A DNA stretch of 64,000 nt, taken from positions 622 to 64,621 of IMG/VR virus record IMGVR_UViG_3300025138_000035. One strand, written 5' to 3'. Numbering within the stretch: the first letter of the stretch is position 1; every line of letters begins with the position of its first letter. The notes beneath the pieces are model-generated. The model had not been told where the DNA came from. It saw only the letters and a program-made list of their open reading frames with translations, and did not search any database. Of the stretch, positions 2,951 to 34,197 are shown piece after piece. The position numbers and the translations under genes were made by a program. This DNA is from a virus.

Positions 2951-3403
2951 ATGAGTAATAACGTAAGAAGAAAAAAAAATTTAGTAATTGAAAGATTAAA
3001 TCGTAGATTATTGGGGGAATCAGAAATGGATTGTCCAAAAGCTACTCAAGATTTGGAATTAAACACCAAAAATAGAGATTCATCGATTAAGGCAGAACAT
3101 ATAAAATATGGACCATTAAATGTTGATGAACCTGGTGATTATTGGAAAAATTTAGCTAACCATTGGGACACTACAGAATCTGCAGCTAAAAAATCTTTAT
3201 GTGGTAACTGTGTTGCGTTTGATATATCAGAAAGAATGGATGAATGTATGCCCGGAGTAACATCAGATGAAGACGGTCGTTTAGGTTATTGTTGGATGCA
3301 CAATTTTAAATGTCACTCGGCTAGAACTTGTTATACGTGGGCAAAAGGTGGTCCAATTAACAAGGATAAAGTTTCTTATGAATGGCAAGAAAGAAACGCA
3401 TAA
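2951..3403 (+). CDS. Cys-rich hypothetical protein (CGNC...GYC...C..W) with basic leader
   Basis: ORF track; multiple Cys in a HiPIP-like spacing. Confidence 0.6.
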   Translation: MSNNVRRKKNLVIERLNRRLLGESEMDCPKATQDLELNTKNRDSSIKAEHIKYGPLNVDEPGDYWKNLANHWDTTESAAKKSLCGNCVAFDISERMDECMPGVTSDEDGRLGYCWMHNFKCHSARTCYTWAKGGPINKDKVSYEWQERNA

Positions 3404-3407
3404 TAGT

Positions 3408-3436
3408 TTGACAATACTATAATTGTTACTTATTAT
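3408..3436 (+). promoter_or_regulatory. Sigma70-type promoter for DNA polymerase
   Basis: TTGACA (3408-3413), 17-nt spacer, TATTAT (3431-3436). Confidence 0.65.
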
Positions 3437-3507
3437 TTAGTTAAGTGTTAAAGAGTAATCATGTCAATACGATATGAGTAAATGTCTCAAACGAAAAAAC
3501 AAATAAT

Positions 3508-6339
3508 ATGGTATCACAAAAAGAAATCGAAACTTTCCTTAACGGAGAGGACCCTGAAAAGTATATAGTGGCGTTAGAATATGATTACGCATCAGGAAAA
3601 ATATTCAAAATAATTCAAGACCCTGTTCAGGGTAAATCAATAAAATCAGACACATTTATTCCATTTGCTTGGGTAGGTAATCTACAAGGTATTAACTTTT
3701 ATGGGGGTTCTAAATCCGCGCAAAAACAAGCAATGTCAACACATGGTATTATTATCGAGACATTAGATACTCATAATGATTCACGAATGGAAGCGGGTTT
3801 AAAATATTTAGTTAAAACAACTAAATCATATAGTAATTTAGTAAATTTCTTTAAAGGTGGTGGGTTAGACCCATGGGGTCGAGGTAATTCAGATTATATA
3901 ATGATTTTAGCTCCTGCAGAACAATACCTTATACAAAAAAATAAAAGACTTTTTAAGGGTTTTGATGAGTACGATGAGGTACATAGATTTGTATTTGATA
4001 TTGAAACCACTGGTCTTTCTCCAGAAGATAGTAAAATTTTCATGATAGGGATGAAAGATAATAAAGGGTTTGAAAAGGTTATTGCCTGTGAGAACGATGA
4101 AGAAGAACGTCAATTAATTATAGAATTTTTTAATATTATTGCGTTTATTAAACCGTCATTAGTTGGTGGGTACAACTCAGCCTTTTTTGATTTTCCCTTC
4201 ATTATTCGTAGAGCTGAAATATTGGGATTAGATATTAAAAAAATAGCTAAAACATTAAATCCTAAACAAAAGTTAAGACAAAAGGAGGGTATGTTGAAGT
4301 TAGCGAATGAGATGGAACCATATACTCAAACAATGATGTGGGGTTATAATATTATTGATATTGCCCATGCGGTTAGAAGAACTCAAGCAATTAACTCAGA
4401 TATTAAAAGTTGGGGACTTAAATATATTACTCAATTCATTGGTGCGGAAAAAGAAAACCGTGTTTATGTTGAAGGGGATAAAATTGGTAAAATTTATTTT
4501 GACAATAAAGATTATTATTTCAACCCAAAAACAGGTGGGTATAAAGAAGTTGGCTCAATAGGTACTGAAAACCTAATGGAAAGATTTCCAGGTCACTATG
4601 AAAAGGTAAATGGGAACTACATTATTGAGCGATATCTTTATGACGATATTTGGGAGACTATGGTTGTGGATGAAGAGTTTAATCAAGCGAACTTTCTTCT
4701 ATCTAAATTAGTACCCACCACATACGAAAGGTTATCAACTATGGGTACTGCGACATTATGGAAAATGATTATGGCGGCTTGGTCATATAAACATAACTTA
4801 TCCATCCCTAAAAAAGGTGAGAAACGACCATTTACAGGTGGGTTATCAAGATTAATGGCAGTGGGGTACTCTACAGACGTTTTAAAACTCGATTACTCTT
4901 CACTATACCCATCGATACAGTTAGTTCATGATATCTTCCCTAAATGTGATGTAACGGGGGCAATGAAGAGTATGTTGAAGTACTTTAGAGATACTCGTAT
5001 CAATTATAAACAATTAGCATCAGATTTATATGTTTCAGACCCAGAACAGTCTAAAAAGTATAATCGTAAACAATTACCAATTAAGATTTTTATTAATGCT
5101 TTTTTCGGGTCATTATCGGCACCTCACGTATTTCCGTGGGGAGATATGGATATGGGGGAACAAATAACTTGTACTGGTAGGCAATACCTTAGACAAATGA
5201 TTATGTGGTTTATGAAAAAAGGTTATAAACCATTAGTGATGGATACGGATGGTGTAAACTTTTCATCACCACCTGAACGTGAAAATCATACCTATATCGG
5301 TAAGGGGTTGAATGGTTTAGTTAAAGAAGGTAAAGAATATGTTGGTACTGAAGCAGATGTTGCTGAGTATAATGATATCTTTATGAGGGGAGAAATGGGA
5401 TTAGATACTGATGGTGTATGGCCGTCAACAATTAACGTAGCTCGTAAAAATTACGCATTACTTACGGATACGGGTAAAGTTAAATTAACAGGTAACAGTA
5501 TTAAATCTAAAAAATTACAAACATATGTTGCCGAGTTCTTGGACCATGGACTTCGTTTATTATTAGACGGTAAAGGTCACGAGTTCTTGGATTTCTATTA
5601 CGAGTATGTAAATAAAATTTACAATTTAGAAATACCTATTTCTAAAATTGCAAATAAATCTCGTGTTAAACAAAGTATAAACGACTACAAATTACACATG
5701 AAAAAAAGAACTAAGTCAGGTTCTTTAATGTCGAGACAGGCACACATGGAATTAGCAATAAAGCATAATTTAAATATTGGGTTGGGTGACACAATTTACT
5801 ATGTTAATAATGGAGAAAGAAAATCTCATGGGGATGTTCAGAAAAAGAATAAATGGAACGCAACCGCCGCCGAAAAAAGAGAATACGCAATTAGTAATGG
5901 TAAACCTATGCCTCCAGACTCTACTGAAATCGTATTAAACTGTTATTTAATTGATGATAAACATATAAGTGATACTCCCGATAAATTAGGTGAGTATAAC
6001 ATTGCTCGTTATATGGCGGCATTTAATAAGCGTATTGAACCATTACTTGTCGTGTTTTCACCTGAAATTCGTAGTGAGATATTAATAGATAACCCAGAAA
6101 ATAGACCGTTTTTTACTAAATCCCAAACTAAGTTAGTAAGGGGGTACCCAATGAAAGAAGGTAGTCAAGATAATTTAGATGAGGTACTAACACTGTCGGA
6201 CCCCGAAATTAGGTTTTGGGATGATGTTAATATAAGTCCTTATTATATGTATTTAGAGGATACCACTAAATTAGTGGATATGGAGTATGTGAATAAAAAT
6301 ATGAATATTATGAGTTCTTTAGCCCATCAGAAGACATAA
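3508..6339 (+). CDS. polB: Family B DNA polymerase with 3'-5' exonuclease
   Basis: ExoI FDIETTG, ExoII GYNSAFFDF, ExoIII YLYDD, motif A DYSSLYPS, motif B KIFINAFFG, motif C MDTDG. Confidence 0.95.
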   Translation: MVSQKEIETFLNGEDPEKYIVALEYDYASGKIFKIIQDPVQGKSIKSDTFIPFAWVGNLQGINFYGGSKSAQKQAMSTHGIIIETLDTHNDSRMEAGLKYLVKTTKSYSNLVNFFKGGGLDPWGRGNSDYIMILAPAEQYLIQKNKRLFKGFDEYDEVHRFVFDIETTGLSPEDSKIFMIGMKDNKGFEKVIACENDEEERQLIIEFFNIIAFIKPSLVGGYNSAFFDFPFIIRRAEILGLDIKKIAKTLNPKQKLRQKEGMLKLANEMEPYTQTMMWGYNIIDIAHAVRRTQAINSDIKSWGLKYITQFIGAEKENRVYVEGDKIGKIYFDNKDYYFNPKTGGYKEVGSIGTENLMERFPGHYEKVNGNYIIERYLYDDIWETMVVDEEFNQANFLLSKLVPTTYERLSTMGTATLWKMIMAAWSYKHNLSIPKKGEKRPFTGGLSRLMAVGYSTDVLKLDYSSLYPSIQLVHDIFPKCDVTGAMKSMLKYFRDTRINYKQLASDLYVSDPEQSKKYNRKQLPIKIFINAFFGSLSAPHVFPWGDMDMGEQITCTGRQYLRQMIMWFMKKGYKPLVMDTDGVNFSSPPERENHTYIGKGLNGLVKEGKEYVGTEADVAEYNDIFMRGEMGLDTDGVWPSTINVARKNYALLTDTGKVKLTGNSIKSKKLQTYVAEFLDHGLRLLLDGKGHEFLDFYYEYVNKIYNLEIPISKIANKSRVKQSINDYKLHMKKRTKSGSLMSRQAHMELAIKHNLNIGLGDTIYYVNNGERKSHGDVQKKNKWNATAAEKREYAISNGKPMPPDSTEIVLNCYLIDDKHISDTPDKLGEYNIARYMAAFNKRIEPLLVVFSPEIRSEILIDNPENRPFFTKSQTKLVRGYPMKEGSQDNLDEVLTLSDPEIRFWDDVNISPYYMYLEDTTKLVDMEYVNKNMNIMSSLAHQKT

Positions 6340-6646
6340 TATACCAATAACCATTAATATATCTTAATTCAACTGAGGCAAACTTTTCGAGTCTAATTTC
6401 CTCATATTGCTCATCGATTAGTTTGCTAGATTTAACTACTGAATCGGACATAGATTTTACTGTAACATGTTCAGTAGTAGTTTCATCTAATAAAATTACA
6501 CATTCCAATTTATCATTTTTTACAATAATTGAGCTTTCACCTTTAGTGGTATATGAAGATGTACCATTAACCACAATAGAATCAGAAACAATCGTTTCTT
6601 TACCGTTAATAATTTTTTTAATCGGACGTGTTTTTATTATTCCCAT
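6308..6646 (-). CDS. Small beta-rich hypothetical protein, probably structural
   Basis: Directly downstream of the neck gene on the same strand (2-nt gap); ends in SVELRYINGYWYI, a pattern like small fibre/decoration domains. Confidence 0.55.
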   Translation of the reverse strand: MGIIKTRPIKKIINGKETIVSDSIVVNGTSSYTTKGESSIIVKNDKLECVILLDETTTEHVTVKSMSDSVVKSSKLIDEQYEEIRLEKFASVELRYINGYWYIMSSDGLKNS

Positions 6647-6648
6647 AA

Positions 6649-7761
6649 TTAAATAACATACATTTGTCTAGGTAATGCTCTATATTGTAATGATTTATTT
6701 AACTGTTCAGCTAAGTTAGCCTCTCTTTCCATCATTTTATCAGGTCTTAATCTTTCTAATCTAGCGGTTAACTCCTCCAATAACTTACTTTTTTCATCTT
6801 TAGCTTCAGTAAGTAGTGAATCATAATCCATAGTTACTTCAGAATCGGGGGTTTTTAAGTTACCACTAAATTTACCTCTAACACGACCTAACGTTTCTTT
6901 TACATATGCTACGAACCATTTTCTAACCCAAGCCTGTGCAGGATTATTTAACTCTGCCCATAACATCTCATCAATCGGAATATCAGAAGGTAATCTAATG
7001 ATATCAGGATTTTTTGCTAAACAGTCTTCTCTATCATCAGTTTCATAATACCAATACCATACTCGGTACTCATTGTTTTGTAGATTACCAAAATCAAATT
7101 TACCACCAGGTACATTATAAAGATGTAGTGCCTTTTTACCTTCAGGTAATGCGGTTACTCTATAAGTTAGTTCACCACCAATCAATCTTCTTTTTAAGTT
7201 GATGTCTTGCATTCTAAGTAAAATGTCGAACGCTGGAGTTATCATATAGTTACCGGATTGACCCATTTGTGAAAAACCAGCACCTCCACCCATACCTACG
7301 CCACCCATACCTCCAAATCCACCCATAAATGGGTCGAAAAATGCGGCGTCTAATTCGGCTCTAGTAAACCATAATAATTCATTTAACTCTCTACCCGCGG
7401 GTATTTCATAGATTTGTTGGTTTGTCTTTAAATCTATGTAGTCTTTTTTAAGTACAGAATCTCCACCGGCTTGTAGTCCAACAATTTTAGAATACGCGTA
7501 AGTGTATTGTGTTTCCCAATCTAAGGAACGTGTAGTAAATGCTCTAGTAACCGATTCTTCGTCTAAGTTCAACCCATAAAGAGATGTCCATTGTGATTCA
7601 ATTAACCAATCATTTACATATTGGGCATAATCTTGAATTGAAAACTCTAATAATGAGTCCATCATTTCATCTTCTATTTCGATACTACGTATTGGTGCAC
7701 CTAACAGGTGTTTTACACGAGTATACAGTTTTGTTCTTTGTGGTTCAATAATTACAGACAT
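6649..7761 (-). CDS. Neck/head-tail adaptor protein (T4 gp13-like)
   Basis: N-terminal RVKHLLGAPIRSIEIEDEMMD...SIQDY resembles gp13-type neck proteins; TATTTATA at 7776-7783 (minus) upstream. Confidence 0.7.
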   Translation of the reverse strand: MSVIIEPQRTKLYTRVKHLLGAPIRSIEIEDEMMDSLLEFSIQDYAQYVNDWLIESQWTSLYGLNLDEESVTRAFTTRSLDWETQYTYAYSKIVGLQAGGDSVLKKDYIDLKTNQQIYEIPAGRELNELLWFTRAELDAAFFDPFMGGFGGMGGVGMGGGAGFSQMGQSGNYMITPAFDILLRMQDINLKRRLIGGELTYRVTALPEGKKALHLYNVPGGKFDFGNLQNNEYRVWYWYYETDDREDCLAKNPDIIRLPSDIPIDEMLWAELNNPAQAWVRKWFVAYVKETLGRVRGKFSGNLKTPDSEVTMDYDSLLTEAKDEKSKLLEELTARLERLRPDKMMEREANLAEQLNKSLQYRALPRQMYVI

Positions 7762-7802
7762 ATATGTGTTTTCTTTATAAATATTAAGAAAACTACATTT
7801 CG

Positions 7803-9365
7803 TTAATTATTATATTGTGATGACTCACTAAACACGTATCTTCCGTTAATTATCTTTGTGTTTTTATTTTCAAAAACTTCGGTACCTAATTTATTACTAT
7901 GAAATACTAAGTAGTCAGTTTTATATGGTTTGACGTTTCCTGTACCATAAACAATAACTTTACCGTCTTGTTTATTAATTCTATTAAATGGTTTAATTTG
8001 TATTGTTTTAGTACCTTCAGGTAATTCAACAACCGCATCAATACCTTTAATCATATCATCCACATCACCTAGTTCACCAACTTTTTTAACGTCGCTAGTA
8101 TTGAAAATATTTTTTAAACTTGCTACGGCGTCAACTTCTCTTTTATCCCCAAATTTGTTAGTTTTATCTAATCCCGCCATAATTGTTTTAAACGTTGGGG
8201 AGTCTGATTTAAAGATAGAGTACCTTAATTCGACTAAATATTTATTAAGTCTATCTACTTCAGATAGTTGCTCTTTACGGTTTTTATCATTAAAGTTAAT
8301 TGCATCAATACCATATTTTCTTAAATACTGATTAGTATCGCTAACTAAAGTACAAAATGCGGTGTAATTAGTATTTAACTTATTAATAACAGAACGACCT
8401 TTTTGTTCATAATCGTAAATTCCTGACATTTGACCTTTATCGTATTTATTTTTTTCATACCAATACTCTGAAAATACTTCTTTTAAAATATCCATTATAG
8501 TATACATAAAACGTTTTTTAATTTCAGGGTTCGTATTAAATAATCTTCTATATGTTTGTACTTGGTTTCTATTACAACCCGCACTTGCACCTTCAGAAAT
8601 AATATTTTTAACTATCTTAGTCTCAGTTAATTTTTTAGAGGTTTGATTTAAATATAATTCATTAACATAATCCCAATTAATTATTGTCCAAAAATTTCTA
8701 ACGTATTCGTCTCTTTTGTTACGATATTTTAAATAATATGCATGTTCCCACGTATCTAAACAAAGGATTGGGTACCCACCATTTTTAACCACATTCATTA
8801 ATGGGTTGTCCTGATTAGGGGTGGACATAACTTTTAATTTACCTCCCTTAGTTACTACCAGCCAAGTCCATCCTGAACCAAAATTTTTAATGGCCTCATT
8901 ACTAAATATTTTTTTAAATTTAGGAAAACTTCCAAAATCTTTAATTATTTTTTCATATACCGCACCTTCAGCTCTTTGTTTTTTAGGTGACATAATTTTC
9001 CAAAATAATGCGTGGTTAAATGCCCCACCCGCATTATCTCTAATTGTTTTATTATACCTTGAGATACCTTTTATTAGTTGTTCTAATTCAATATTTCCAT
9101 CGACTCTACTTGAAAGAGCATCATTTAATTTTTTTACGTATCCTTTATAATGTTTATTATAGTGAGTGTCCATAGTTTCTGAATCTATAAATCTCTCTAA
9201 GGCAGAATAAGAGTACGGTAATTCTTCTATACCAATTTTTTTCATTTCTGTTAAAATTTGTTTGGGAGTGTGCGAGATAATAGGATTAACTTTAGTTAAT
9301 TTTTCTCGGCTATTAATTTTATGTTCAATTAATGAGATTTTGTCTTTTAACCTTTTGAACTTCAT
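7803..9365 (-). CDS. sodA: Fe/Mn superoxide dismutase (Mn-type signatures) fused to a C-terminal PD-(D/E)xK-like domain
   Basis: LPYSYSALE, THYNKHYKGY, NAGGAFNHALFW, FGSGWTWL, NQDNP, DTWEHAYY (ligands H68, H118, D204, H208); extra ~260-aa C-terminus with GID...TIQIKP. Confidence 0.9.
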   Translation of the reverse strand: MKFKRLKDKISLIEHKINSREKLTKVNPIISHTPKQILTEMKKIGIEELPYSYSALERFIDSETMDTHYNKHYKGYVKKLNDALSSRVDGNIELEQLIKGISRYNKTIRDNAGGAFNHALFWKIMSPKKQRAEGAVYEKIIKDFGSFPKFKKIFSNEAIKNFGSGWTWLVVTKGGKLKVMSTPNQDNPLMNVVKNGGYPILCLDTWEHAYYLKYRNKRDEYVRNFWTIINWDYVNELYLNQTSKKLTETKIVKNIISEGASAGCNRNQVQTYRRLFNTNPEIKKRFMYTIMDILKEVFSEYWYEKNKYDKGQMSGIYDYEQKGRSVINKLNTNYTAFCTLVSDTNQYLRKYGIDAINFNDKNRKEQLSEVDRLNKYLVELRYSIFKSDSPTFKTIMAGLDKTNKFGDKREVDAVASLKNIFNTSDVKKVGELGDVDDMIKGIDAVVELPEGTKTIQIKPFNRINKQDGKVIVYGTGNVKPYKTDYLVFHSNKLGTEVFENKNTKIINGRYVFSESSQYNN

Positions 9366-9403
9366 TTGTTTTTTTATTATAAATAATAGGTAATTATAAT
9401 TTT

Positions 9404-11167
9404 TTATCTTCTAACTGATATTTCATTAATAATTTGTTCCATAATGTCCCCTCTTTCCTCATTATCGCCCATAACGGTTTCAAAGATATTTTTCTTTTGT
9501 GAGAGAATATCATAAATTATCCCTTCAATAGAGTTTTCAAATATTGGATAAAATACTGATACGTTAGAATTCTGACCATACCTATAAGCCCTGTCTTCAG
9601 CCTGAGAATGGTCCGAAGGGACAAAAGATAAATCATTCATAATGACCGCCTCCGCAGCTGTTAGTGTTATTCCAACACCCGCAGCTTTAAGATTACCCAC
9701 AAACACCCTTATTTTATCATTTTCTTGAAATTGGTCTACTGAGTGTTGTCTTGATATTTTATTCATCTTACCGTCTAACTTCACCGCTTTTTTACCGAAA
9801 TGGTCAGCAATCTGATTTAAGGTATTGGTGAAGTTAGTGAAAATTATTACTTTTTTACCTTGTTCGATAATGTTCTCAACTAATTCACAAGTTTCTTTAA
9901 TTTTACTTTCAGCTATTATCTGTCTTATTTTCATTAACATAGAAAACTGTACCGTTAATGATTTCTTTTCCCTATCGTCTTCCATCCAATCATAATATTC
10001 ACCCATTAGAGCAACATACTCTTTAGATTTTAAATTAAGGTAAACGGGGGTAATAATTTTATCAGGTAAATCTAAAATATCTTTTTTTAATCTTCTGAGT
10101 ACGTGAGTCTTAGTTCTATCTCTTAGTTCCGTAAGATTAGACGACCCGTTCACGTTCCAAACTCTACGGTTACCTACATTAAATTGATATCCTTCACAAT
10201 ATCTAATAACGTACGCCATCCAATTATATGCGACAGGCGACTCAACTAAATTTAATAAGTTATAATAATTTATTGGTCTTGATGTCATCGGCGTTCCTGT
10301 CAATAACCAAACCTTACCTATTGAGTTTATAATATCATTAATAAGTTTGGTTCTTTTAGCTTGAACATTCTGAATATAATGTGCCTCATCAACAACAACT
10401 AAATCAAACCCTTCTTGTAATATAATTGACTCTTCTTTGTTCTTAATATTGTGAAAGTTTTTTAATATGTCATAATTAATAATAACAAAATCCGCACTTT
10501 CCCATTTCTTACCTTCAACTATCGATATTGATTTTTCAGTGTAGTTTTGAATTTCACGTTTCCAATTAATTTTTAATGACGCTGGACAAACAATTAATAC
10601 TCTTTCTGCTCCCGATTCTAAAGCGGCAATTACTGTTGAGGTCGTCTTACCTAATCCCATATCGTCAGCTAAAATATATTTTTTATGACTAGCTAACTTT
10701 TCTATAGATTCGATTTGATGTTCTAGCGGAGGTCTATGTGAATACTTTTCATAATCAATTTCAACCTTCTCCGTTTCTTGTGATTTAATTAATGCGACAC
10801 GAGGTAACCAAAATGAATGTAATTTTTCATTTTCGAAGATTTTACCCCAAATATGAAAGGATTTATCTTTTTCAACTAAAAGTTTTTCTATGTAGACTTT
10901 TTCGGGAACTCTTGTGAGAAGTTTATCTTCCATCATTTTTTTACCAAAGTAACTATCTAAGTCGACCCACTTTCTAGCTATCTTGGGAATTAATCCGTTA
11001 TAGGAATTAATATAGTCCGCTTGAGCTCTAGTTAATTTAAAATGTTTTTGTTCTCTGAATTTTTTTTGAATGGATTGTATATAGTTATTGAACCCATCGT
11101 AATCCTCTAATATACGTTGCGCCCTAACTTCAGGTATCTTTGATAATTTATCTTTATTACTTTCCAT
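9404..11167 (-). CDS. SNF2-family (SMARCAL1/HARP-like) helicase
   Basis: LADDMGLGKT, DEAH, LTGTP, QAEDRAYRYGQ. Confidence 0.92.
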   Translation of the reverse strand: MESNKDKLSKIPEVRAQRILEDYDGFNNYIQSIQKKFREQKHFKLTRAQADYINSYNGLIPKIARKWVDLDSYFGKKMMEDKLLTRVPEKVYIEKLLVEKDKSFHIWGKIFENEKLHSFWLPRVALIKSQETEKVEIDYEKYSHRPPLEHQIESIEKLASHKKYILADDMGLGKTTSTVIAALESGAERVLIVCPASLKINWKREIQNYTEKSISIVEGKKWESADFVIINYDILKNFHNIKNKEESIILQEGFDLVVVDEAHYIQNVQAKRTKLINDIINSIGKVWLLTGTPMTSRPINYYNLLNLVESPVAYNWMAYVIRYCEGYQFNVGNRRVWNVNGSSNLTELRDRTKTHVLRRLKKDILDLPDKIITPVYLNLKSKEYVALMGEYYDWMEDDREKKSLTVQFSMLMKIRQIIAESKIKETCELVENIIEQGKKVIIFTNFTNTLNQIADHFGKKAVKLDGKMNKISRQHSVDQFQENDKIRVFVGNLKAAGVGITLTAAEAVIMNDLSFVPSDHSQAEDRAYRYGQNSNVSVFYPIFENSIEGIIYDILSQKKNIFETVMGDNEERGDIMEQIINEISVRR

Positions 11168-11181
11168 AATGTAATATTTAT

Positions 11182-11210
11182 AATATAACTATAAACTAAC
11201 TATTTATCAA
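11182..11210 (-). promoter_or_regulatory. Sigma70-type promoter for SNF2 helicase, overlapping a plus-strand late motif
   Basis: Minus strand TTGATA-N17-TATATT, 14 nt before the ATG at 11167. Confidence 0.5.
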
Positions 11211-11213
11211 TAT

Positions 11214-11729
11214 ATGAGTAATAGAAAGATACCAATAACGCGTTTAGAGAAGTTTTTCGGGTCCGAAGATTTTGGTTTGGAACAAAATATGGGTCGAGAG
11301 TGGCTTGAGGGTGATATGCACTTCACTCTTGTTTTATACAAAGTTGACCGACAAAAAACTAAAACTGATGACGTATACGGTGAGTCCTTAGAGGATGGGA
11401 TACAATTTTTACCGCCCGTTGAGTTTAAAGGTTATGTTACAATCGAATCTCCCGACAATCAAAATTACGCTAGTTCTAATTTATCTCAAATGGAGCCAGG
11501 AAACTTAAAGGTTAGTGTTTATCAGGATTCGTTAGATGAGTTAAATATTGATATCGATTATGGTGATTACTTAGGTTATTACGAAACTGAGGACCGAGTA
11601 AGATATTACTCTGTCGTAAACGATGGTCGAGTTGTTAGTGACAATAAACATACTTATGGAGGATTTAAACCTTTCTATCGAAGTATAATCGCAGCTCCCG
11701 TCAATGACGGAGAATTTAGAGGAATATGA
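11214..11729 (+). CDS. Neck/head-closure protein (gp14-like)
   Basis: PVEFKGYV...GNLKVSVY..L..LNIDIDYGDY...RYYSV pattern; precedes the terminator and sheath genes; TATTTAT at 11201-11207. Confidence 0.55.
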   Translation: MSNRKIPITRLEKFFGSEDFGLEQNMGREWLEGDMHFTLVLYKVDRQKTKTDDVYGESLEDGIQFLPPVEFKGYVTIESPDNQNYASSNLSQMEPGNLKVSVYQDSLDELNIDIDYGDYLGYYETEDRVRYYSVVNDGRVVSDNKHTYGGFKPFYRSIIAAPVNDGEFRGI

Positions 11730-12286
11730 AAAAATTAATAAAGGAAATAAGTTTAATTAAGAGTCGTATGTCACATATGTGTGAAGGTATTGAGGGTGAA
11801 AAAGTTGTGTGTGACGAATGTGGATGGTCTTGGGATTTAAGTGATGGTGGTCATGACCCATATATTTGTCATAAATGTGGTAACGATAATCAAGAGGTTA
11901 ACTATGTCGGTAAAAAAGTTATGGTGTATTATAACTTACATAAGCACACGTTTTCAGTATCATACAAAAATAAGATTGTTATGTATGCAGATTATGTTAA
12001 ATTGGAAAATGTTGAGTTTAGGGTTAGACAAGGCGGTAAAGAAAAAGTTAGGGATGAAATGAGAAAAAATGTTCATGCCTTTGTAATTGGAACTTTAGTG
12101 GATTTTTGTACGTTTCCATGTGAGAACTTACCTGAAGAGCCAAATGAAAATGTAATTACTTATAATCCGTATAAGTATGACTCATTTGTTAGAAAAGACG
12201 GTGAAAAACCAATCTATAACGCCAATGAGGTTGAGATGATTAACTCAAAAAATAAAGTTTTTTTTATCAGTGAAATCAAAGAATAA
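11726..12286 (+). CDS. Hypothetical protein: basic leader, Zn-ribbon (CDEC...CHKC) and a conserved phage domain (VYYNLH...KNVHAFV...YNPY)
   Basis: ORF track; 4-nt overlaps/coupling with neighbours. Confidence 0.65.
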   Translation: MKKLIKEISLIKSRMSHMCEGIEGEKVVCDECGWSWDLSDGGHDPYICHKCGNDNQEVNYVGKKVMVYYNLHKHTFSVSYKNKIVMYADYVKLENVEFRVRQGGKEKVRDEMRKNVHAFVIGTLVDFCTFPCENLPEEPNENVITYNPYKYDSFVRKDGEKPIYNANEVEMINSKNKVFFISEIKE

Positions 12287-13326
12287 TGGGACTACCTAAA
12301 AACGTAAAAAAACATTTACCTTTAACTCTACCTAAAACTCTACTTAAAAGAAGAGAAGAATTATTAGAGCAGATTGAGAAGGACGGAACGTACTTACCTA
12401 AATCCATTTTACATGCCGATTTAGATAGAGGTATGTTAGACTTCGTTAGAGATGAGTTAGGTATTTCAATAAACGGTAAAAATGTAAGTAATATTGATTT
12501 AATTATAACTACACAAAATTGGGCTCAATTTACAGAATCTTGGAATTTTCAAGATTTAGATAAAAATATTAAACCTCCGTTTGTTGCTACAGTTAGAAAT
12601 CCAGACGTTAAGTTTGGAACTAACCCCTCATTACAATACACCATACCAAATAGAAGACAGTTCTATTATGCCAAAGTACCAACATGGGATGGTCAAAGAA
12701 AGGGAATGGACATTTATAAAATACCACAACCCGTTCCCGTAGATATAACTTATAATGTTAAAATATTTTGTAATAGAATGCGAGAGTTAAATGACTTTAA
12801 TAAAAAAGTCTTACAAAAATTTTCATCTCGACAAGCGTACACTGAAATAAAAGGTCATTACATACCGATGATTTTAAATAGTTCATCTGATGAATCTGTT
12901 TTAGAACTTGAAAAAAGAAAATACTATGTACAAAGTTATGAATTTTTAATGATGGGGTTTCTATTGGATGAGGAAGAGTTTGAAGTGTCTCCTGCAATAT
13001 CAAGAACCGCAACTATATTTGAGGTCGATACTCTTAACACAGGTAGGAGAGTTGAAAAGTATCCTTCAAACCCAAGTGATTTTGATTTAGACATAATTTT
13101 TGTTAGTGGTATAGAATCTTTAACTGAAACTTATAGATATGAAATTGATTTAACAATATTAGAATCCACTAATGTCGACAGCTATTCTGTTTATATTAAT
13201 GGTAACTATATTGGTGATGATATTTCAACTATAAAAATATCCACTAACGATGAAATCAAAATTGATGTCGTTAAGATAGATATAGGTAAACAGTCGGTAT
13301 TAAAATCTAAAGCGAGACTTCTTTAA
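12286..13326 (+). CDS. Tail terminator/completion protein (gp15-like) with C-terminal extension
   Basis: Position between neck and sheath; PVDITYNVKIF...LNDFNKK pattern. Confidence 0.55.
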   Translation: MGLPKNVKKHLPLTLPKTLLKRREELLEQIEKDGTYLPKSILHADLDRGMLDFVRDELGISINGKNVSNIDLIITTQNWAQFTESWNFQDLDKNIKPPFVATVRNPDVKFGTNPSLQYTIPNRRQFYYAKVPTWDGQRKGMDIYKIPQPVPVDITYNVKIFCNRMRELNDFNKKVLQKFSSRQAYTEIKGHYIPMILNSSSDESVLELEKRKYYVQSYEFLMMGFLLDEEEFEVSPAISRTATIFEVDTLNTGRRVEKYPSNPSDFDLDIIFVSGIESLTETYRYEIDLTILESTNVDSYSVYINGNYIGDDISTIKISTNDEIKIDVVKIDIGKQSVLKSKARLL

Positions 13327-13476
13327 TTATTCTCCGTAGATATCTTTAACTTCTTTACAATTATCTTCAATTAATTTTTCTAAGAATTTATAAATCTTTA
13401 AACCGTGTTTTTCACAGTATATTTTTAAAGTCATATGTGACTCAGGTGAAATTTTTATGTTTTTTATTTTAGCCAT
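13327..13476 (-). CDS. 49-aa ribbon-helix-helix-like DNA-binding protein (not in ORF track)
   Basis: Manual translation MAKIKNIKISPESHMTLKIYCEKHGLKIYKFLEKLIEDNCKEVKDIYGE*; TATTTATA on minus strand at 13526-13533. Confidence 0.65.
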   Translation of the reverse strand: MAKIKNIKISPESHMTLKIYCEKHGLKIYKFLEKLIEDNCKEVKDIYGE

Positions 13477-13611
13477 AGGTGTTTTTTTAAAATGTAGAAA
13501 AAAGGTAGAACTTTTTCATACTCTTTATAAATATACTCTTATCTTATTAGTTTTTTCATCTTTTTGCTAATATTTATCAATAAATAAAAACTTAAAGAAA
13601 AAAATTACACA

Positions 13612-16600
13612 ATGGCAACATCTAACAAAGTATTTGTATCTCCGGGTGTTTATACATCAGAAAGAGATTTAAGTTTTGTGGCACAAAGTGTAGGAGTCAC
13701 AACTTTAGGGTTAGTAGGTGAAACAATTTCGGGACCAGCATTCGAGCCGATTTTCATAACTAACTTTGACGAGTTTCAATCCTATTTCGGTGGTACAAAT
13801 CCAACTAAATTCGTAAATACTCAGATACCTAAGTATGAGGCGGCTTACATAGCTAAATCATATCTACAACAATCAAATCAATTGTTTGTTACTAGAGTAC
13901 TTGGTCTATCAGGGTATGACGCAGGACCTTCATGGTCAATAACAACTATCGGTAACTTAGATAGTTCAGGAACAACCGCTACGGGGGTACTTGGAGCATT
14001 TAATATTACATTCACCGGAGTTTCAGGAACATCAACAAGTGTTGAAGTGACAAATTACAGTTCACTTCCAGCTTCAATTCAAGGTGTGATAACAAATCCA
14101 TATACTACGTATACTGGTGGTCAATCATCAATCCTTTCAGATATGGAAGGTTATTTCTATTCAGAAATAGTAAACAACGCAACTTCAGGTCAAACATCTT
14201 ATTTTTGGGGAGCGGTGAGTGCTTCTACATTTGACAGTACTACAGCTTCAACGGCTAATCAAACGGGTGCACTTGCAGCAATTAACACTAACGTTTTAAG
14301 TGTTGAGGATATTCGTTTTGAAAGTATAGACTTGACGGACTCAGTAAATGACCCATGGTATTATGCATTATTTACTGAATCTAATGACGTTTATAACGGT
14401 ACTGGGTTTGGTTTAGGTTTAACGACTATGAATAATGTTGGTTTATCTTTCACAGGTACCGCGGCGGTTTTTGTAACTAATTATAGTGGTACACCATATA
14501 ATGATTATCATGATGTGGTAGTAGCTACTTTACGTTCACGAGGTATTGACACATATACTACTGATGACGGACCAGTATATGAGGTTTCAGGAACAACTGA
14601 CGCAATAATAGACTGTTCAGGGGCTTATTCTGGAATATCCACTAACCCTTTTGATACTTTTGCGATTTCAGCGACAACTGCGGATGGGGATAACTTCTTT
14701 TTCCAAACTTCATTTAATATATCTAATTCAAATTACTTATCAAAAGTATTTGGTAAATCTAATTTTGCTAAACCAAAATCTGAAGTACCTTTATTTGTAG
14801 AAGAAGAATATTATAACTTATTAAACACGGGATATCGATTAGGTCGAGTTCGTGGGTTAAATTGTGAATTCGTTGATTTACCAAGTGCAAGACAAGATTT
14901 AGGTACTAACACTAGTATTGGATGGTATTTAGAACAATATCAAACACCTGAAACACCCTACTTTGTTTCGGAACTAAGAGGTAATCAAGTTTATAACATG
15001 TTTAAAGTATTAACTATTTCTGATGGTAATTCGGCAAACAGAGAGGTAAAAGTATCTATCATGAACATTTCATTTAATAATGGAACGTTTGATGTTGTAG
15101 TACGTGACTTCTTCGATACGGATGCTAATCCTGTAGTTTTAGAGAAATTTACTAACTGTACAATGGATATGAATCAAAATAGTTTTGTAGCTAAGAAGAT
15201 TGGTACTTCTAATGGAGAGTTTGAATTAAGGTCTAGATTTATAATGTTAGAAATGAATGAAGATGCACCTATGGATTCACTACCTTGTGGATTTAGAGGA
15301 TATCAAACAAGACAGTTCTCAGGAGTTAAATCACCATTCTTAGAATATAAAACAAAATACGACACACCAGGTGAAGTTATTTGGAACCCACCATTTGGTG
15401 CGGCTTCGGGTACAGATAATGAAACAAGAAGTTCGGGTGACAGAGTCAGAAGAACTTTCTTAGGTGTTTCTAACACTGCAGGTATAGATGCGGATTTCTT
15501 ATCATATAAAGGAAAACAAAACCCAACAAACTTAGCTACCGCGACGGATTCACAACCATGGGCTTACCTTACTAAAGGTTACCATATGGATTCAGGAGCG
15601 ACTGTTATTACTATTTCTTCTAATTATACTACATCAGGTGAAACCGCTTTTGAGGTTGGTGATGCTAGTTTTGATTCGGAACCAGTTGAAGGTAGTCCAT
15701 ATTTTAGATTAAATTCACGTAAGTTCACTGTCGTTCCATCAGGAGGTTTTGACGGATGGGATATATATCGAGAATATAGAACAAATGGTGATAGATACCA
15801 ATTAGGTGCGGCTGGTTTTAGAAAAGGTGCGGCACCATCAATAACTTACCCAACGGCAACAGGATGGGGGGCATTTAAACAAATTGTTGGACCAGACAAA
15901 TTAACTTGGGCTAATACTGATTATTATGCTTACTTATGGGGTCAATATACTTTTAACAATCCTGAAGCGGTTAACATTAATGTGTTTAGTACACCAGGTA
16001 TTGATTACGTAAATAATTCAAACTTAGTTGAGTCGGCGATTGATATGATTGAACAAGACAGAGCGGATTCTATTTATATATGTACTACACCTGATTATCA
16101 AATGTTTACACCTTCTTTAGGTAGTTTTGATACAGACTTTATTTACCCTGAAGAAGCGGTAGATAATTTAGTTGATACAGGAATTGATTCCAACTATACG
16201 GCAACCTATTACCCGTGGATACTTACAAGAGACACGGTTAATAATACCCAAATTTATCTTCCACCAACAGGTGAAGTTATTAGAAACTTAGCGTTAACGG
16301 ATAACATAGCATTCCCATGGTTCGCATCTGCGGGTTACACAAGAGGTTTAGTTAATTCAGTTAAAGCACGTAAAAAGTTAACACAAGAAGATAGAGATAC
16401 ACTATACCAAGGTAGATTAAACCCAATTGCAACCTTCTCTGATGTTGGTACTGTTATTTGGGGGAACAAAACTTTACAAATTAAAGAATCTGCACTTGAT
16501 AGAATAAACGTTAGAAGATTACTACTACAGGCACGTAAATTAATTTCGGCAGTGGCAGTGAGATTATTGTTCGAACAAAATGACGAACAAGTAAGACAAG

Positions 16601-16809: not shown

Positions 16810-16831
16810 TAACTAACTATATTTATAATAA

Positions 16832-16856
16832 GGAGGAGGGTTAATTCCCTCCTCTT
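16832..16856 (+). other. GC-rich RNA hairpin after the sheath gene
   Basis: gaggaggg-ttaatt-ccctcctc; no good U-tract on +, so a stabiliser/processing site or weak terminator. Confidence 0.5.
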
Positions 16857-16885
16857 AGCCAATTAAAAGTTTAAACAAAAATAAA

Positions 16886-17032
16886 ATGGAATTTAACAAA
16901 AAAACACTTAACGAATCGTTAAACGTAAAGTCTAACGGAAAAAAGTCTTTTTCTAAAAAACCTCAAAACATTGTTATATCTGAGACACAATTAGAAAGAC
17001 TAATGGTAAAAATCAATAAAAAAACGAAGTAA
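16886..17032 (+). CDS. 48-aa basic micro-protein (not in ORF track)
   Basis: MEFNKKTLNESLNVKSNGKKSFSKKPQNIVISETQLERLMVKINKKTK*; A-rich start context; TATTTATA at 16820-16827; 2 nt before the next ATG. Confidence 0.6.
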   Translation: MEFNKKTLNESLNVKSNGKKSFSKKPQNIVISETQLERLMVKINKKTK

Positions 17033-17034
17033 TA

Positions 17035-17886
17035 ATGAGTTTAAAGAAGGTCATTAGAGAATTTTATCACGAAAAAAAATTACAGGAAGGATTTGACCCT
17101 GAAGGTAACCCCGATTTGAAGTATTATGCTTTTGATTGGGACGATAATATTGCTACTATGCCAACACAGATTATACTTTTGTCTGATGAAGACGAAGAGG
17201 TCGGTATGTCAACGGAAGATTTTGCAGACTATAGAGGTATGATTGGTAAAGAACCTTTTGAATATAAAAGTAAAATGATTGTGGGGTATGCCGATGACCC
17301 TTATAGAAATTTCGGTGTTAGAGGTGACAATGCCTTTATAGTCGATTCCCTATTAGCGAAACCAGGACCATCGTGGAATGATTTTGTTGAAGCAATAAAT
17401 GGGGGGTCAATTTTTTCAATAATCACTGCAAGAGGACATACACCATCGGTATTACGTGAAGCGATTTATAATATGATTGTGACTAACCATAACGGTATTA
17501 GTAAGGAGTCTTTAATTGACAATCTTAAAAAATATCGTAATATGACGGGTGATGAAGAAAAAGATTCGTCAATAATGATTAACGACTATTTAGATTTAAA
17601 TAAGTACCATCCTGTTACATATGGTGAAGGGAATGCTGCGGACCCTGAAGAGGGTAAAATTAAAGCATTAAGGAGTTTCATTACATATGTTAAAGAAATG
17701 AGTGAGAGGATTGGTAAAAAAGCCTTTCTTAAAAATGATATAAAAAATAATTTTGTACCAATGATTGGGTTTTCTGACGATGACCCAGGCAACGTAGAAA
17801 AGATTAAAGCATTTTTAGATAAAGAATATAAAGATAAACCAGTTAAAACGTATTTAACTAAAGGAGGAGATAAAAAAGAAGTATAA
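17035..17886 (+). CDS. HAD-superfamily phosphatase/nucleotidase with basic leader
   Basis: Motif I AFDWDDNI, motif II ITARGH, motif IV GFSDDD. Confidence 0.75.
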   Translation: MSLKKVIREFYHEKKLQEGFDPEGNPDLKYYAFDWDDNIATMPTQIILLSDEDEEVGMSTEDFADYRGMIGKEPFEYKSKMIVGYADDPYRNFGVRGDNAFIVDSLLAKPGPSWNDFVEAINGGSIFSIITARGHTPSVLREAIYNMIVTNHNGISKESLIDNLKKYRNMTGDEEKDSSIMINDYLDLNKYHPVTYGEGNAADPEEGKIKALRSFITYVKEMSERIGKKAFLKNDIKNNFVPMIGFSDDDPGNVEKIKAFLDKEYKDKPVKTYLTKGGDKKEV

Positions 17887-18006
17887 TTATTATTATATTT
17901 TATTTGCTCTAGTAGATTACTGAAAAAAAAATAAAAGTAAATAGAAAAACTTTTAAACTGGATATTTATAATTAAATAAACTAAAGAAATATAAAACCAA
18001 AATACA

Positions 18007-18495: not shown

Positions 18496-18508
18496 TATAA
18501 AACAAGTA

Positions 18509-18536
18509 TTGATAATAAACCAATCAATTGTATATT
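18509..18536 (+). promoter_or_regulatory. Possible sigma70-type promoter
   Basis: TTGATA-N16-TATATT immediately before the terminator hairpin. Confidence 0.3.
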
Positions 18537-18537
18537 T

Positions 18538-18573
18538 AAAACCATAGAGGTCATTGTACTTCTATGGTTTTTT
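18538..18573 (+). terminator. Intrinsic terminator after the tail tube gene
   Basis: 11-bp stem aaaaccataga/tctatggtttt followed by a T-run. Confidence 0.75.
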
Positions 18574-18589
18574 ATTTAAATTAACTATT

Positions 18590-19339: not shown

Positions 19340-19352
19340 CTATAGGAAAATT

Positions 19353-19514
19353 ATGCTCGATGAGTTCTATTATCTAAGTAAACATGTTAATATGTCTTAC
19401 TCAGACCTACAATTAATGCCCACCTTTGAGAGAAAGTTTTTTATTGATAAACTTTCAACAGAATTTCAAGAAAAAAACGAACAGATAGAAAAACAACGAC
19501 AGAAATCTAGATAA
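19353..19514 (+). CDS. Short tail assembly chaperone-associated ORF; possibly the +1 frameshift extension of the upstream gene
   Basis: MLDEFYYL...MPTFERKFFI; the frame is open back through the last codons of the upstream gene (from 19308). Confidence 0.65.
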   Translation: MLDEFYYLSKHVNMSYSDLQLMPTFERKFFIDKLSTEFQEKNEQIEKQRQKSR

Positions 19515-19542
19515 ACGATATTTATAATAAAAGATATTTCAT

Positions 19543-21489
19543 ATGTTTATGTTTAAAGATGAGAAAATGGAAGAGGTAACGGGTAATATTGCCAGTAATA
19601 TTAAATTAGCCAATATTTCTCTTCTTACTTTTACTAAAAGTCTTAAAAGTAGTTTAACCGATATAACAGGAGTGATTAACTCCGTTGCGAGTTATAATAC
19701 CTTAGCGGCGAATACCGCTAGAGAGACTATGGGGTCCACAAGGGTTGTTGGTGACGCGATACAAAGGGCGTCCGCCGCCGCCGCAGAAAATACTTTATTA
19801 GTCGGAAAAGGTGTTGAAGATAATATTAAATTATATGGAGCACTAAATGCGTCCATGATGAGATTAACATTTTTCTCTGACAAACAAATTGAGGCGTTTC
19901 AAGTCTTAGGTTTTACTGCTAATATGTCTGCCGCGGAATTGGCTACTATGGCAACTTCATTTGATACATTAGGTTATACGACCGACAAAACATTGGAAAC
20001 GATGGGGGGTATGACAAAACAAGCGAGGTCATATGGTTTAAATGTCTCAGAATTTATGGGTGGTGTTAACAAAAATTTAAAGTTAATGACATCATATAAT
20101 TTTAAAGATGGGGTAGACGGTCTTTCTAATATGGTAGCCCAAGCTCAAGCCTTAAGGATTGATATGGGTACAACCGTTAGTTTAGCCGATAAATTAATGT
20201 CTCCTGAAGCAGCTATTGAGACCGCGGCAGGGTTCCAAATGTTAGGTGGGGCAATTGGTAAACTAGGGGACCCATTCCAATTACTCCACATGGCCCAAAC
20301 GGACATGGAAGGGCTACAAGATAGTCTTGTTCAAATGTCTGCGGCTGCGGTAGTATTTAACGAAGATACAGGAGAATTTGATTTACCTGTTACTGAAATG
20401 TATCGTCTTAGAGAGGCTGCTGATTTAGCGGGAATGGGATACCAAGAGATGACCGAAATGGCTATGATGGCGGCTCAAAAGAATAAGAAATTAGATATAT
20501 TAGGTAGTATTAGTGGTCTAGATAACGACCAAAAAGAATTAATTTCTAATCTTGGTAAGATTAATAAAGACGGTAATATTGATATTACTATGCCTGATGG
20601 AACACTTAGACAAATTGGTCAAGGTTTCAATGATATGACAGCCAATGATTACACTGCATTAGAAAAAGTTGTAGCTAAAGATGCGTTGAATGAACTCGAT
20701 GTCGCTAAAAAATCGATGGGTTATCTTAATGAAATAGCGGCGGCTCAATCGGTTCTAACACAAATGACTAGACTACAATTAGCACAAGGTGACGGTTTTA
20801 CAAATGTGGCGGAAGGTTTAGTAAAGTCTAGTACCAATGTAATTGACTCCCTTAAAGGTGAAAACGATAAAGGTGAAAGAGGTAAAGGAAATCGAGTACA
20901 AGAAACCTTTCAAATACCTGATAAAGTTGTCGAAGCATTTTCTTTGGGATTAAGTCAATTAAAAGTAAGTGAAGAACAGGCCGATGAATTTGCGAATTCG
21001 GCATATGAATTCCTTGACAAAGCATACCAGGCGGCGGCTTTAAAATTTGGAGAATTTGATTTTCAGAAGGAAGTTATAGATAAACTTAAAGGTCTTTTTC
21101 AGGAATCAAGCGCGATAATGTTTGACCGTTCAAACGATACTGAGGCCCAACCTGTTACGGGTGAGAATAATTCAAATGAGACAAATGAAGATGGGGAAGG
21201 GGCAACACCTTACCAAAGAGATAATTTCTCTGTGAATAATTTAAATACTTCAAGTCTTAACATTAATGAACCAACTACAAGTACTATTGCATCCAATTCT
21301 AACCTTAATGTTAGTGGTCAAGTTAATTTAACCGTTGATAATATGCCAACTACTTCGGTTATGACTAAAGAACAATTTGCAACGTACTTAACCAATAATC
21401 CAGACGCAATGGCAGCAATCAGTTCTCAACTACTTAATAAAACGGGAGCGTACGGTGGTTCAGTGGCCGGAGTACAAAGTATGGTATAA
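19543..21489 (+). CDS. Tape measure protein
   Basis: Ala/Met/Gly-rich helical 648 aa directly after the chaperone genes; TATTTATA at 19519-19526. Confidence 0.7.
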   Translation: MFMFKDEKMEEVTGNIASNIKLANISLLTFTKSLKSSLTDITGVINSVASYNTLAANTARETMGSTRVVGDAIQRASAAAAENTLLVGKGVEDNIKLYGALNASMMRLTFFSDKQIEAFQVLGFTANMSAAELATMATSFDTLGYTTDKTLETMGGMTKQARSYGLNVSEFMGGVNKNLKLMTSYNFKDGVDGLSNMVAQAQALRIDMGTTVSLADKLMSPEAAIETAAGFQMLGGAIGKLGDPFQLLHMAQTDMEGLQDSLVQMSAAAVVFNEDTGEFDLPVTEMYRLREAADLAGMGYQEMTEMAMMAAQKNKKLDILGSISGLDNDQKELISNLGKINKDGNIDITMPDGTLRQIGQGFNDMTANDYTALEKVVAKDALNELDVAKKSMGYLNEIAAAQSVLTQMTRLQLAQGDGFTNVAEGLVKSSTNVIDSLKGENDKGERGKGNRVQETFQIPDKVVEAFSLGLSQLKVSEEQADEFANSAYEFLDKAYQAAALKFGEFDFQKEVIDKLKGLFQESSAIMFDRSNDTEAQPVTGENNSNETNEDGEGATPYQRDNFSVNNLNTSSLNINEPTTSTIASNSNLNVSGQVNLTVDNMPTTSVMTKEQFATYLTNNPDAMAAISSQLLNKTGAYGGSVAGVQSMV

Positions 21490-33303: not shown

Positions 33304-33347
33304 TTTAAGAAAAAGAGCATTTATCGTATATTTATAAATAAAACATT

Positions 33348-33572
33348 ATGGATACTAAAGCATTATTAGACCAGTTTTTGTCAAAAGACACTAGAATAAC
33401 TGAAAAAAATACGGGTAATGGTTACAAAGAAGTTTGTGATTTAGACACTGGAGATTGTTATACCGTAAGAATGAGAGATGGCCTTATAGAAAGAGTTGAT
33501 AATTCTATGAAACTAAATAGGACTTTAAGAGTTGAAACACCTCATGGGGTAAAAACACTTTTGAACGGTTAA
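33348..33572 (+). CDS. Hypothetical protein
   Basis: ORF track; palindromic TATTTATAAATA at 33329-33340 upstream. Confidence 0.7.
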   Translation: MDTKALLDQFLSKDTRITEKNTGNGYKEVCDLDTGDCYTVRMRDGLIERVDNSMKLNRTLRVETPHGVKTLLNG

Positions 33573-33585
33573 AAAAAAATACAAA

Positions 33586-34197
33586 ATGTCTATAGATAAG
33601 AAAATATTAGAAGAAATAAGTAAATATAATAATATTAACAAATATATTACTGAGCAAGAAACTGACTTACCTGAGCCGATTGAAGGTGGTGACCTTGATT
33701 TAGAAAGTCCTGAACTTGAGATTGATGATGTACAACCTGTTGATGTTGATTCCGACCCCGATGTTGAAGTTGTGGACGAACCTTCATCTGATTCAGATGT
33801 TGAAGAGAGTGGAACAGAAGAATTAGATATAACTGATTTAGTTACTACTCAAAAAGATATGTCAACTAAACAAGAGGAATATATGGATAGTATGATGGAT
33901 AGGTTAAATGACCTTACTTCTAAATTATCTGATATGGATAAAATATTAGTTAAAATTAATAGTTTAGAAGATAAAGTTGAAAAATATCGTCAAAAATCAC
34001 CTGAAGAAAAGTTACAACTAAGAAGTTTAGATAGTTACCCATATAATCAAAAGTTAACCGATTTCTTTATGGACAAAGGTCCTGATATGGAAAAGACAGG
34101 TAAAAATGAATATGTGCTAACGTCTGATGAAGTAGAAAGTTATTCAGATAGAGATATTAAAGATTCGTTTGATGCACCTTTAGAACAAGAATATTAA
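33586..34197 (+). CDS. Acidic coiled-coil protein, possible scaffold/head-internal protein
   Basis: D/E-rich N-half, heptad-like MDRLNDLTSKLSDMDKIL; leader KKILEEI...YITEQE. Confidence 0.6.
   Translation: MSIDKKILEEISKYNNINKYITEQETDLPEPIEGGDLDLESPELEIDDVQPVDVDSDPDVEVVDEPSSDSDVEESGTEELDITDLVTTQKDMSTKQEEYMDSMMDRLNDLTSKLSDMDKILVKINSLEDKVEKYRQKSPEEKLQLRSLDSYPYNQKLTDFFMDKGPDMEKTGKNEYVLTSDEVESYSDRDIKDSFDAPLEQEY

Follow-up and report, generated by a model that had tools for sequence, protein, structure and literature searches.

We analysed a 64,000-nucleotide stretch of viral DNA (positions 622 to 64,621 of the IMG/VR record IMGVR_UViG_3300025138_000035; hereafter the window), in which one minus-strand gene joins a superoxide dismutase (SOD) to an N-terminal leader and to a second, C-terminal domain. 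The record is a linear, 66-kb metagenomic virus that CheckV rates as ~21% of a genome, and the window covers roughly a fifth of the genome of a jumbo myophage of ~310 kb. Among its gene products are a family-B DNA polymerase, an SNF2 helicase, DnaB, a single-stranded DNA-binding protein (SSB), a UvsX-like recombinase and a ribonucleotide reductase (RNR), together with a complete set of contractile-tail and baseplate proteins (sheath, tube, hub, gp25-like and gp6/J-like). An initial annotation of this DNA proposed that the SOD fusion and five other open reading frames (ORFs), named here by their first nucleotide (2951, 11726, 16886, 17035 and 33586), begin with similar basic leaders ending in (I/L)-x-E that would send them into the phage head and be cut there by a prohead protease. 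All six ORFs and the strings quoted from them were found where that annotation had placed them. The reading at which we arrive, and to which we give about an even chance, is narrower: head cargo in this lineage would be tagged and protease-trimmed, with the SOD fusion as the best substrate in the window, 11726, 2951 and 17035 as weaker ones, and 16886 and 33586 probably not among them.

The SOD fusion and its upstream motif are laid out as follows:

7803..9365, minus strand: SOD fusion gene, 520 amino acids (leader, Fe/Mn SOD, linker, PD-(D/E)xK-like domain), a candidate polyprotein precursor; from Pfam, homologues and AlphaFold2
9246..9365, minus strand: SOD leader, residues 1-40, with a conserved amphipathic helix (2-23), a variable spacer and I-L-T-E (37-40), then M41; from the family alignment and AlphaFold2
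8646..9245, minus strand: Fe/Mn superoxide dismutase domain, residues 41-240; Pfam PF00081 and PF02777
8592..8645, minus strand: interdomain linker, residues 241-258, with K-L-T-E (245-248) and I-I-S-E (255-258); from the alignment and AlphaFold2
7806..8591, minus strand: C-terminal domain, residues 259-520, with a fold weakly like that of PD-(D/E)xK nucleases; from AlphaFold2 and Foldseek
9379..9385, minus strand: TATTTAT, a late/structural promoter-like motif 14-20 nucleotides upstream of the SOD start, kept upstream of the SOD gene in relatives

Sod_Fe_N (PF00081) matched residues 47-126 (1e-21) and Sod_Fe_C (PF02777) residues 133-236 (5e-39), and the metal ligands H68, H118, D204 and H208 were invariant in an alignment of 47 homologues with <80% mutual identity; judged by its sequence, the domain is a true Fe/Mn SOD. 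Because the SOD profile begins at about residue 43, the first 40 residues are an extension. Residue 47 corresponds to position 5 of Sod_Fe_N, and therefore a cut after I-L-T-E would leave a normal SOD start at M41, as the initial annotation had reasoned; the further motifs that it had noticed between the two domains are the K-L-T-E and I-I-S-E of the linker. In cut-site numbering, the leader/SOD junction had I or L at P3 in 41/47 homologues, a free P2 (entropy 2.8 bits), Glu at P1 in 41/47 and Met at P1' in 41/47. In the linker, E248 and E258 were invariant (47/47), with L, I, V or M at P3 of the first site, I or L at P3 of the second, and a free P2 at the second. The first L-I-E of the leader has a P3 that is unconserved in the family. 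AlphaFold2 modelled two confident domains, and its predicted local distance difference test score (pLDDT) fell below 50 at residues 20-42 and 245-258, which span all three sites. Alignment and model thus support, at the three SOD junction motifs, the conservation pattern expected of a recognition site, placed in predicted flexible linkers.

The C-terminal domain was modelled alone with a pLDDT of 92. Its best Foldseek hits, I-Ssp6803I, Hjc and NhoI, were weak (E 2.4e-3 to 5e-2, TM score 0.24/0.42); E410, D437, D443, Q456 and K458 are invariant, and the domain had no Pfam and no PHROG match. The same architecture occurs in >1700 metagenomic homologues, and 26 IMG/VR contigs carry the fusion at 77-99% identity. 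We regard the SOD fusion as a good candidate for a polyprotein processed by a protease.

Is the protease that such a precursor would need encoded by these phages? The initial annotation had supposed that a gp21-type prohead protease lies outside the window. This was borne out by the relatives: PF03420 (Peptidase_S77, the gp21 family) was found at E ~1e-25 in 10/13 long contigs carrying the SOD fusion, including the only complete genome among them, and the window's own 66-kb record is without it. The three longest close relatives (139-199 kb) all encode both this protease (E ~1e-25) and a gp23-type capsid protein (PF07068, E ~1e-63); the more distant long contigs encode the protease in 7/10 cases. 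Two relatives are used below: G001, which aligns to window 2929-21328 at 88% nucleotide identity, and G004, a 322,477-bp record, rated complete, that shares synteny with the window and is one of the seven distant protease carriers. In G001 the head module runs in T4-like order through portal, three small genes, protease, a small gene, an acidic scaffold and the capsid protein. Residues 57-61 of the capsid protein read L-I-N-E then Ala, 11 residues ahead of the stretch aligned with residue 28 in mature T4 gp23, and from this register its propeptide is likely cut after L-I-N-E.

A megablast search with 18 kb of the window returned no match among GenBank phages, where the lineage is without a near relative. 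The closest cultured capsid proteins were those of Flavobacterium phage immuto and Microcystis phage Mel-JY01 (~42% identity). The immuto capsid protein has I-V-S-E|A where the propeptide end is expected, and its gene at the gp68 position (5659-6741) has an N-terminus with H-F-I-A-E then Ala, near the T4 IPIII tag end. The host of the window phage is probably a member of the Bacteroidota, because TAnnTTTG, a Bacteroidota-promoter-type motif, is enriched upstream of some window genes.

The relatives also carry a common N-terminal tag. Of the 265 ORFs of G001, some start with Met, 1-6 mostly basic residues and (I/L)-(T/N)-E-S-(Q/D)-L, often with a second (I/L)-x-E-Q ~13 residues later. A profile built from seven seeds was iterated over G001, G004 and the window, with a 0.1% threshold that 5/4772 internal 30-residue decoys exceeded; 48 N-termini scored above it, vs 0.74 false ones expected. 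The canonical form, MK-(I/L)-(I/L)-I-T-E-S/N-Q, is borne by at least 48 unrelated late proteins of G001 and G004. Once their first 25 residues were stripped, 37 tagged proteins were sorted by BLAST into 31 components; the tag is thus portable and no mark of paralogy. Ser at P1' is encoded by both AGT and TCN codons and Thr by all four of its codons; thus selection acts on the tag peptide. The lineage carries a genuine, portable, I-T-E-containing N-terminal tag on unrelated late proteins, and a full-text literature search for tag strings gave no relevant paper.

Tagged products include a GH24 lysozyme, a GH19/peptidoglycan-binding protein and further peptidoglycan-binding proteins. At 152570-155514 of G001, a 792-amino-acid protein (DHH-like start, peptidoglycan-binding domain, GH19) and a 189-amino-acid GH24 lysozyme are encoded side by side, both with tag-like N-termini, and may be virion-borne wall-degrading enzymes. 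Beside the capsid gene of a third relative, G003, lies a gene for a 461-amino-acid protein with a canonical tag followed by D-K-P-T-E-Q repeats; at the same capsid-side position G001 and G002 have a different, Lys-rich tagged protein, so that head-module cargo appears variable.

Tagged genes are associated with TATTTAT, a motif with 15-fold enrichment in the 60 nucleotides before genes that stands ahead of head, neck, sheath, tube, tape-measure and baseplate genes as well as the SOD gene. The motif stands before 24/48 tagged genes vs 119/618 others (p 5e-6), or, when operon chains are counted, 38/48 vs 216/618 (p 3e-9). The late-motif association that the initial annotation reported for the six ORFs likewise stands: besides the SOD gene, TATTTAT precedes ORF 2594, which is translationally coupled to 2951, ORF 11214, coupled to 11726, the sheath gene, which lies ahead of 16886 and 17035, and ORF 33348, which precedes 33586.

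The other five ORFs, with two of these motifs, are:

2582..2588, plus strand: TATTTAT before ORF 2594; from the motif scan
2951..3403, plus strand: Cys-rich HiPIP-like protein, with a leader (residues 1-23, nucleotides 2951-3019) that ends in L-G-E five residues before the conserved domain; from family comparison
11726..12286, plus strand: Zn-ribbon and Phage_L5_gp82 protein whose N-terminal M-K-K-L-I-K-E (nucleotides 11726-11746) is a degenerate canonical tag; Pfam PF25735 and tag profile
16886..17032, plus strand: basic 48-amino-acid ORF with a tag-like, yet internal, stretch at residues 28-42 (nucleotides 16967-17011); marginal profile hit, E 0.008 to 0.16
17035..17886, plus strand: HAD-like protein, residues 1-18 of which (nucleotides 17035-17088) hold I-R-E and L-Q-E then G; from the family alignment
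33329..33335, plus strand: TATTTAT before ORF 33348; from the motif scan
33586..34197, plus strand: acidic 203-amino-acid protein with an N-terminal module that is a family-wide conserved element; from family comparison

PHROGs had nothing for five of the six ORFs, and NCBIfam yielded nothing of use. A propeptide before a conserved mature domain was found in the SOD fusion, 2951 and 11726, and a boundary (L/I)-x-E with a free P2 in the SOD fusion (three sites), 17035 and 2951. No other ORF of the window scores as well with the tag profile as 11726 (decoy p 0.009); L/I-x-E is present in all its orthologues, and that of G004 has a canonical tag fused straight to the gp82 domain, which makes 11726 a fair candidate for tagged cargo. 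In the 2951 family, different phages place at least 15 unrelated clusters of leaders before the conserved Cys domain, and (I/L)-x-E lies within six residues of the domain in 59/108 unique leaders vs 13.8 ± 3.5 after shuffling, and in 8/15 clusters. The HiPIP name has as its sole basis the depositors' annotation of GenBank phage homologues, 2951 having no Pfam and no NCBIfam match; as tagged cargo it is possible. ORF 17035 is also possible: among 53 unique N-termini of its family, L-x-E-G stands directly before the conserved core in 53/53, with P2 variable, and the Glu of the first site is kept in 50/53. Its G004 orthologue, in which the first ten residues are missing, has L-I-E|G at the same aligned position. 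An F-D-W-D-D-N motif makes HAD phosphatase a lead for this protein, which had no Pfam, NCBIfam or PHROG match and whose atlas neighbours carry HAD-type families in just 10-83% of members.

The remaining two are doubtful as tagged cargo, and here the cargo-tag idea of the initial annotation loses ground that it keeps for the SOD sites and the portable tag. The tag-like stretch of 16886, an ORF conserved in G001-G003 and absent from G004, is internal. The first 25 residues of 33586 contain a module, L-x-E-E-L-K-R-F-N-x-I-N-x-Y, that is kept down to ~35% identity in many phage groups, and in many homologues (I/L)-x-E-Q follows it. Because this module is conserved in very distant phages, the N-terminus of 33586 is an integral domain of the protein and not a lineage-specific address, and there is no propeptide before its mature domain. 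The 33586 family is widespread in phages; its acidic proteins end in a conserved domain that a low-complexity spacer of Pro and acidic residues separates from the N-terminal module, and the gene lies before the SSB gene; 33586 itself had no match among GenBank phages.

What weighs against reading these N-termini as cargo tags? In the window, (I/L)-x-E occurs in the first 40 residues of 14/39 ORFs vs ~13 expected from N-terminal composition, and it is also borne by the SNF2 helicase, the large subunit of RNR and the UvsX-like recombinase, so that at N-termini of the window the motif is no more frequent than chance predicts; one quoted example, the LVIE of 2951, has Val at P3. Nor are the leaders alike. 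A search with the canonical-tag profile set the six N-termini apart: ranked against internal decoy windows, 11726 fell in the top 0.9%, 16886 at 3.4%, the SOD fusion and 33586 at 9% (p 0.09 for the latter), 2951 at 12% and 17035 at 41%, so that no targeting sequence common to the six was found. Five of the six leaders fail to match the canonical tag, that of the SOD fusion being unique: its profile matched no other protein in ~245 kb of lineage sequence. The iterated tag profile recruited no window ORF, and a six-frame scan of the window gave just the marginal hit within 16886. The internal proteins of T4, in contrast, share one capsid-targeting sequence (CTS). The evidence of similar leaders on the six window ORFs is mostly chance resemblance. 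In addition, some close 2951 homologues have L-G-K/Q/R in place of L-G-E, and 13/108 leaders lack a hydrophobic-x-Glu; the sequences in the family alignments are related, so that their counts are non-independent events; and head targeting, cleavage and delivery with the DNA are steps that we infer for this lineage.

Genome-wide, I or L two residues before a Glu at positions 4-12 occurred in 60/288 ORFs vs 39 ± 5.5 after shuffling, and in G004 in 92/401 vs 59 ± 6; about one third of the N-terminal occurrences are above background and about two thirds are expected by shuffling. The bare tripeptide is too common in AT-rich phages for identifying cargo, and hence conservation at domain boundaries across whole families and a decoy-calibrated tag profile are needed. 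The density of (I/L)-x-E over the whole protein was also tried as a substrate marker and rejected, because the scaffold was at expectation (9 vs 9.0) and the SNF2 helicase was enriched (16 vs 8.7).

These figures lend weight to an explanation from composition and ordinary helices, to which we give a sizeable minority share of probability. On this account, N-termini rich in Lys, Ile, Leu and Glu in a genome of ~33% G+C produce the motif by chance, in non-structural enzymes as elsewhere, and the segments of the SOD fusion and of the HAD-like and HiPIP-like proteins are uncut structural or oligomerisation helices and linkers. The SOD leader is conserved as an amphipathic helix that could mediate oligomerisation, and the 33586 module is conserved far outside the lineage. 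Composition leaves three observations unexplained: (i) invariant Glu with a free P2 in the low-confidence linkers of the SOD fusion; (ii) the many unrelated leaders of the HiPIP-like domain that tend to end in (I/L)-x-E at the domain edge; and (iii) a canonical tag across unrelated late proteins.

Alternatively, the tags may be real and direct proteins elsewhere, to neck, tail or baseplate assembly, a membrane site or chaperone binding, whether cleaved or not, which we consider unlikely. The 66-kb record contains no head genes, and the six candidates lie in the neck/tail module, among neck, sheath, tube and baseplate genes whose promoter motif they share, and not in the head module. The tagged lysozyme, GH19 and peptidoglycan-binding proteins could equally be tail-associated. 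In G004, two extra canonical-tag genes of ~128 codons each (161392-162600, syntenic with window 11214-12286) stand between the orthologues of 11214 and 11726, at what seems to be a neck/tail site where tagged genes are inserted. Against another destination, one tagged gene occupies the prohead-core (gp68) position directly upstream of the G001 protease gene, the tag profile gives the N-terminus of the scaffold a weak score, the tag holds I-T-E as does T4 Alt at its cut site, and known gp21-type proteases act inside proheads (PMC9026906).

A start-codon explanation, in which the SOD is made mainly from internal Met41 and the 40 codons are an optional or separate extension (dual initiation or a regulatory upstream peptide) with no protease needed, would fit the conserved Met at P1', which counts against a cleavage site, and the 480-residue forms on record, and we regard it as very improbable: the leader is open, with whole-codon indels, in 23/26 relatives, its helix is conserved at the protein level down to ~50% identity, the promoter-like motif stands directly before the first ATG and not before Met41, and the two invariant linker sites are left unaddressed. 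The SOD leader is clearly translated. Three IMG/VR contigs from different samples have a one-base frameshift in the C5 run of the leader, which leaves the equivalent of Met41 as the one start from which their SOD can be read; they may represent a true variant without the leader or a homopolymer error common to all three.

How would tagged, protease-trimmed head cargo be loaded? The head would be built in T4 fashion from a gp23-type capsid protein, a scaffold and a gp21-type (Peptidase S77) protease cutting after the Glu of hydrophobic-x-Glu. Short N-terminal propeptides would bring extra proteins into the prohead, where the protease would then trim them; most genes with the common tag lie outside the window. 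The SOD fusion would be a polyprotein with a private 40-residue amphipathic leader: a cut after L-T-E would free a normal Mn/Fe SOD, and two further cuts in the 18-residue linker would separate it from the PD-(D/E)xK-like domain that follows. That the packaged fusion is cut into an active SOD and a PD-(D/E)xK nuclease, both injected with the DNA alongside the HiPIP-like protein and the phosphatase, is an extension that we advance tentatively and hold to be doubtful. That a load-and-cut mechanism exists in this lineage is, by comparison, very probable.

If the tags work as in T4, the cargo set of an uncultured jumbo phage would be predictable from N-terminal sequence. For a widespread aquatic clade, one item of that set would be an antioxidant enzyme fused to a nuclease-like domain, suggesting that oxidative stress matters at infection or inside the virion, and protease-released polyprotein cargo would extend beyond T4 Alt. 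On the more doubtful extension, in which both products of the SOD fusion are injected, this jumbo-phage clade, abundant in the sea, would bring a ready antioxidant and takeover kit into the cell, and the cargo list could be read from sequence alone.

Outside these subjects, the window at 39204-42216 encodes an RNR with an ATP-cone on the small subunit, in the same genome as the SOD gene. The 5' ORF (window 1-2562) has a HExxH metalloprotease-like start and several domains joined by PT-rich linkers, and both ends of the record break within long Thr-Pro-Thr-Asn repeat DNA.

Several known viruses carry comparable elements. The chlorovirus PBCV-1 packages its Cu/Zn SOD A245R, a late gene product, in the virion (PMC7019647); this too is a virus-encoded SOD, but of a eukaryotic virus and of an unrelated SOD family, without a protease-removed tag. 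In the jumbo phages phiKZ, 201phi2-1 and SPN3US, many head and ejection proteins are cut after Glu by a protease related to gp21, and one propeptide often has several such sites (PMC9026906, PMC5694885). Their protease differs from that of the present lineage in belonging to subfamily S80 and in cutting at S/A/G-x-E, with a small P3 residue instead of Ile or Leu. We know of no common short tag described for these phages.

A closer parallel in enzyme family is found in PA5oct, a 287-kb Pseudomonas jumbo phage in which PF03420 is present. Its EST35_0261 (QCG76142.1; 182 amino acids) is an Fe/Mn SOD-family protein by Pfam, and its first 13 residues end in I-A-E then Ala, which we take to be close to the T4 IPIII tag end. 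EST35_0261 thus resembles the SOD fusion as an SOD-family protein with an N-terminal tag in a jumbo phage with this protease, whereas it is 26% identical and has neither the nuclease-like domain nor the 40-residue leader. The GenBank record of EST35_0261 carries the note ESI-MS/MS (electrospray ionisation tandem mass spectrometry), a method that identified 93 PA5oct gene products linked to virion particles (PMC7318152); its presence in the virion rests on this note and the paper's general statement, a literature search having returned nothing that links PA5oct to SOD.

The closest system overall is that of the T4 CTS/gp21 substrates (IPI, IPII, IPIII, Alt, gp67 and gp68). T4 gp21 cuts after L/I-x-E, and propeptides frequently contain several of these sites (PMC9026906). 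For capsid targeting, residues 1-10 of IPIII are enough (PMC3012670), and Alt loses six residues at I-T-E-6 and 63 C-terminal residues at L-T-E-619 (PMC5694885). The lineage tag differs in sequence from the 10-residue IPIII tag, the six window proteins are without one tag, and release from the SOD fusion would require cuts within the protein, between its two enzyme domains. Both systems have a gp21-family protease, short N-terminal propeptides ending in hydrophobic-x-Glu, I-T-E and L-T-E as in the sites cut in Alt, diverse cargo bodies, a tagged gene at the gp68 position and genes that appear late. Taken with these T4 facts, the canonical tag therefore fits the known system in length, position and cut motif.

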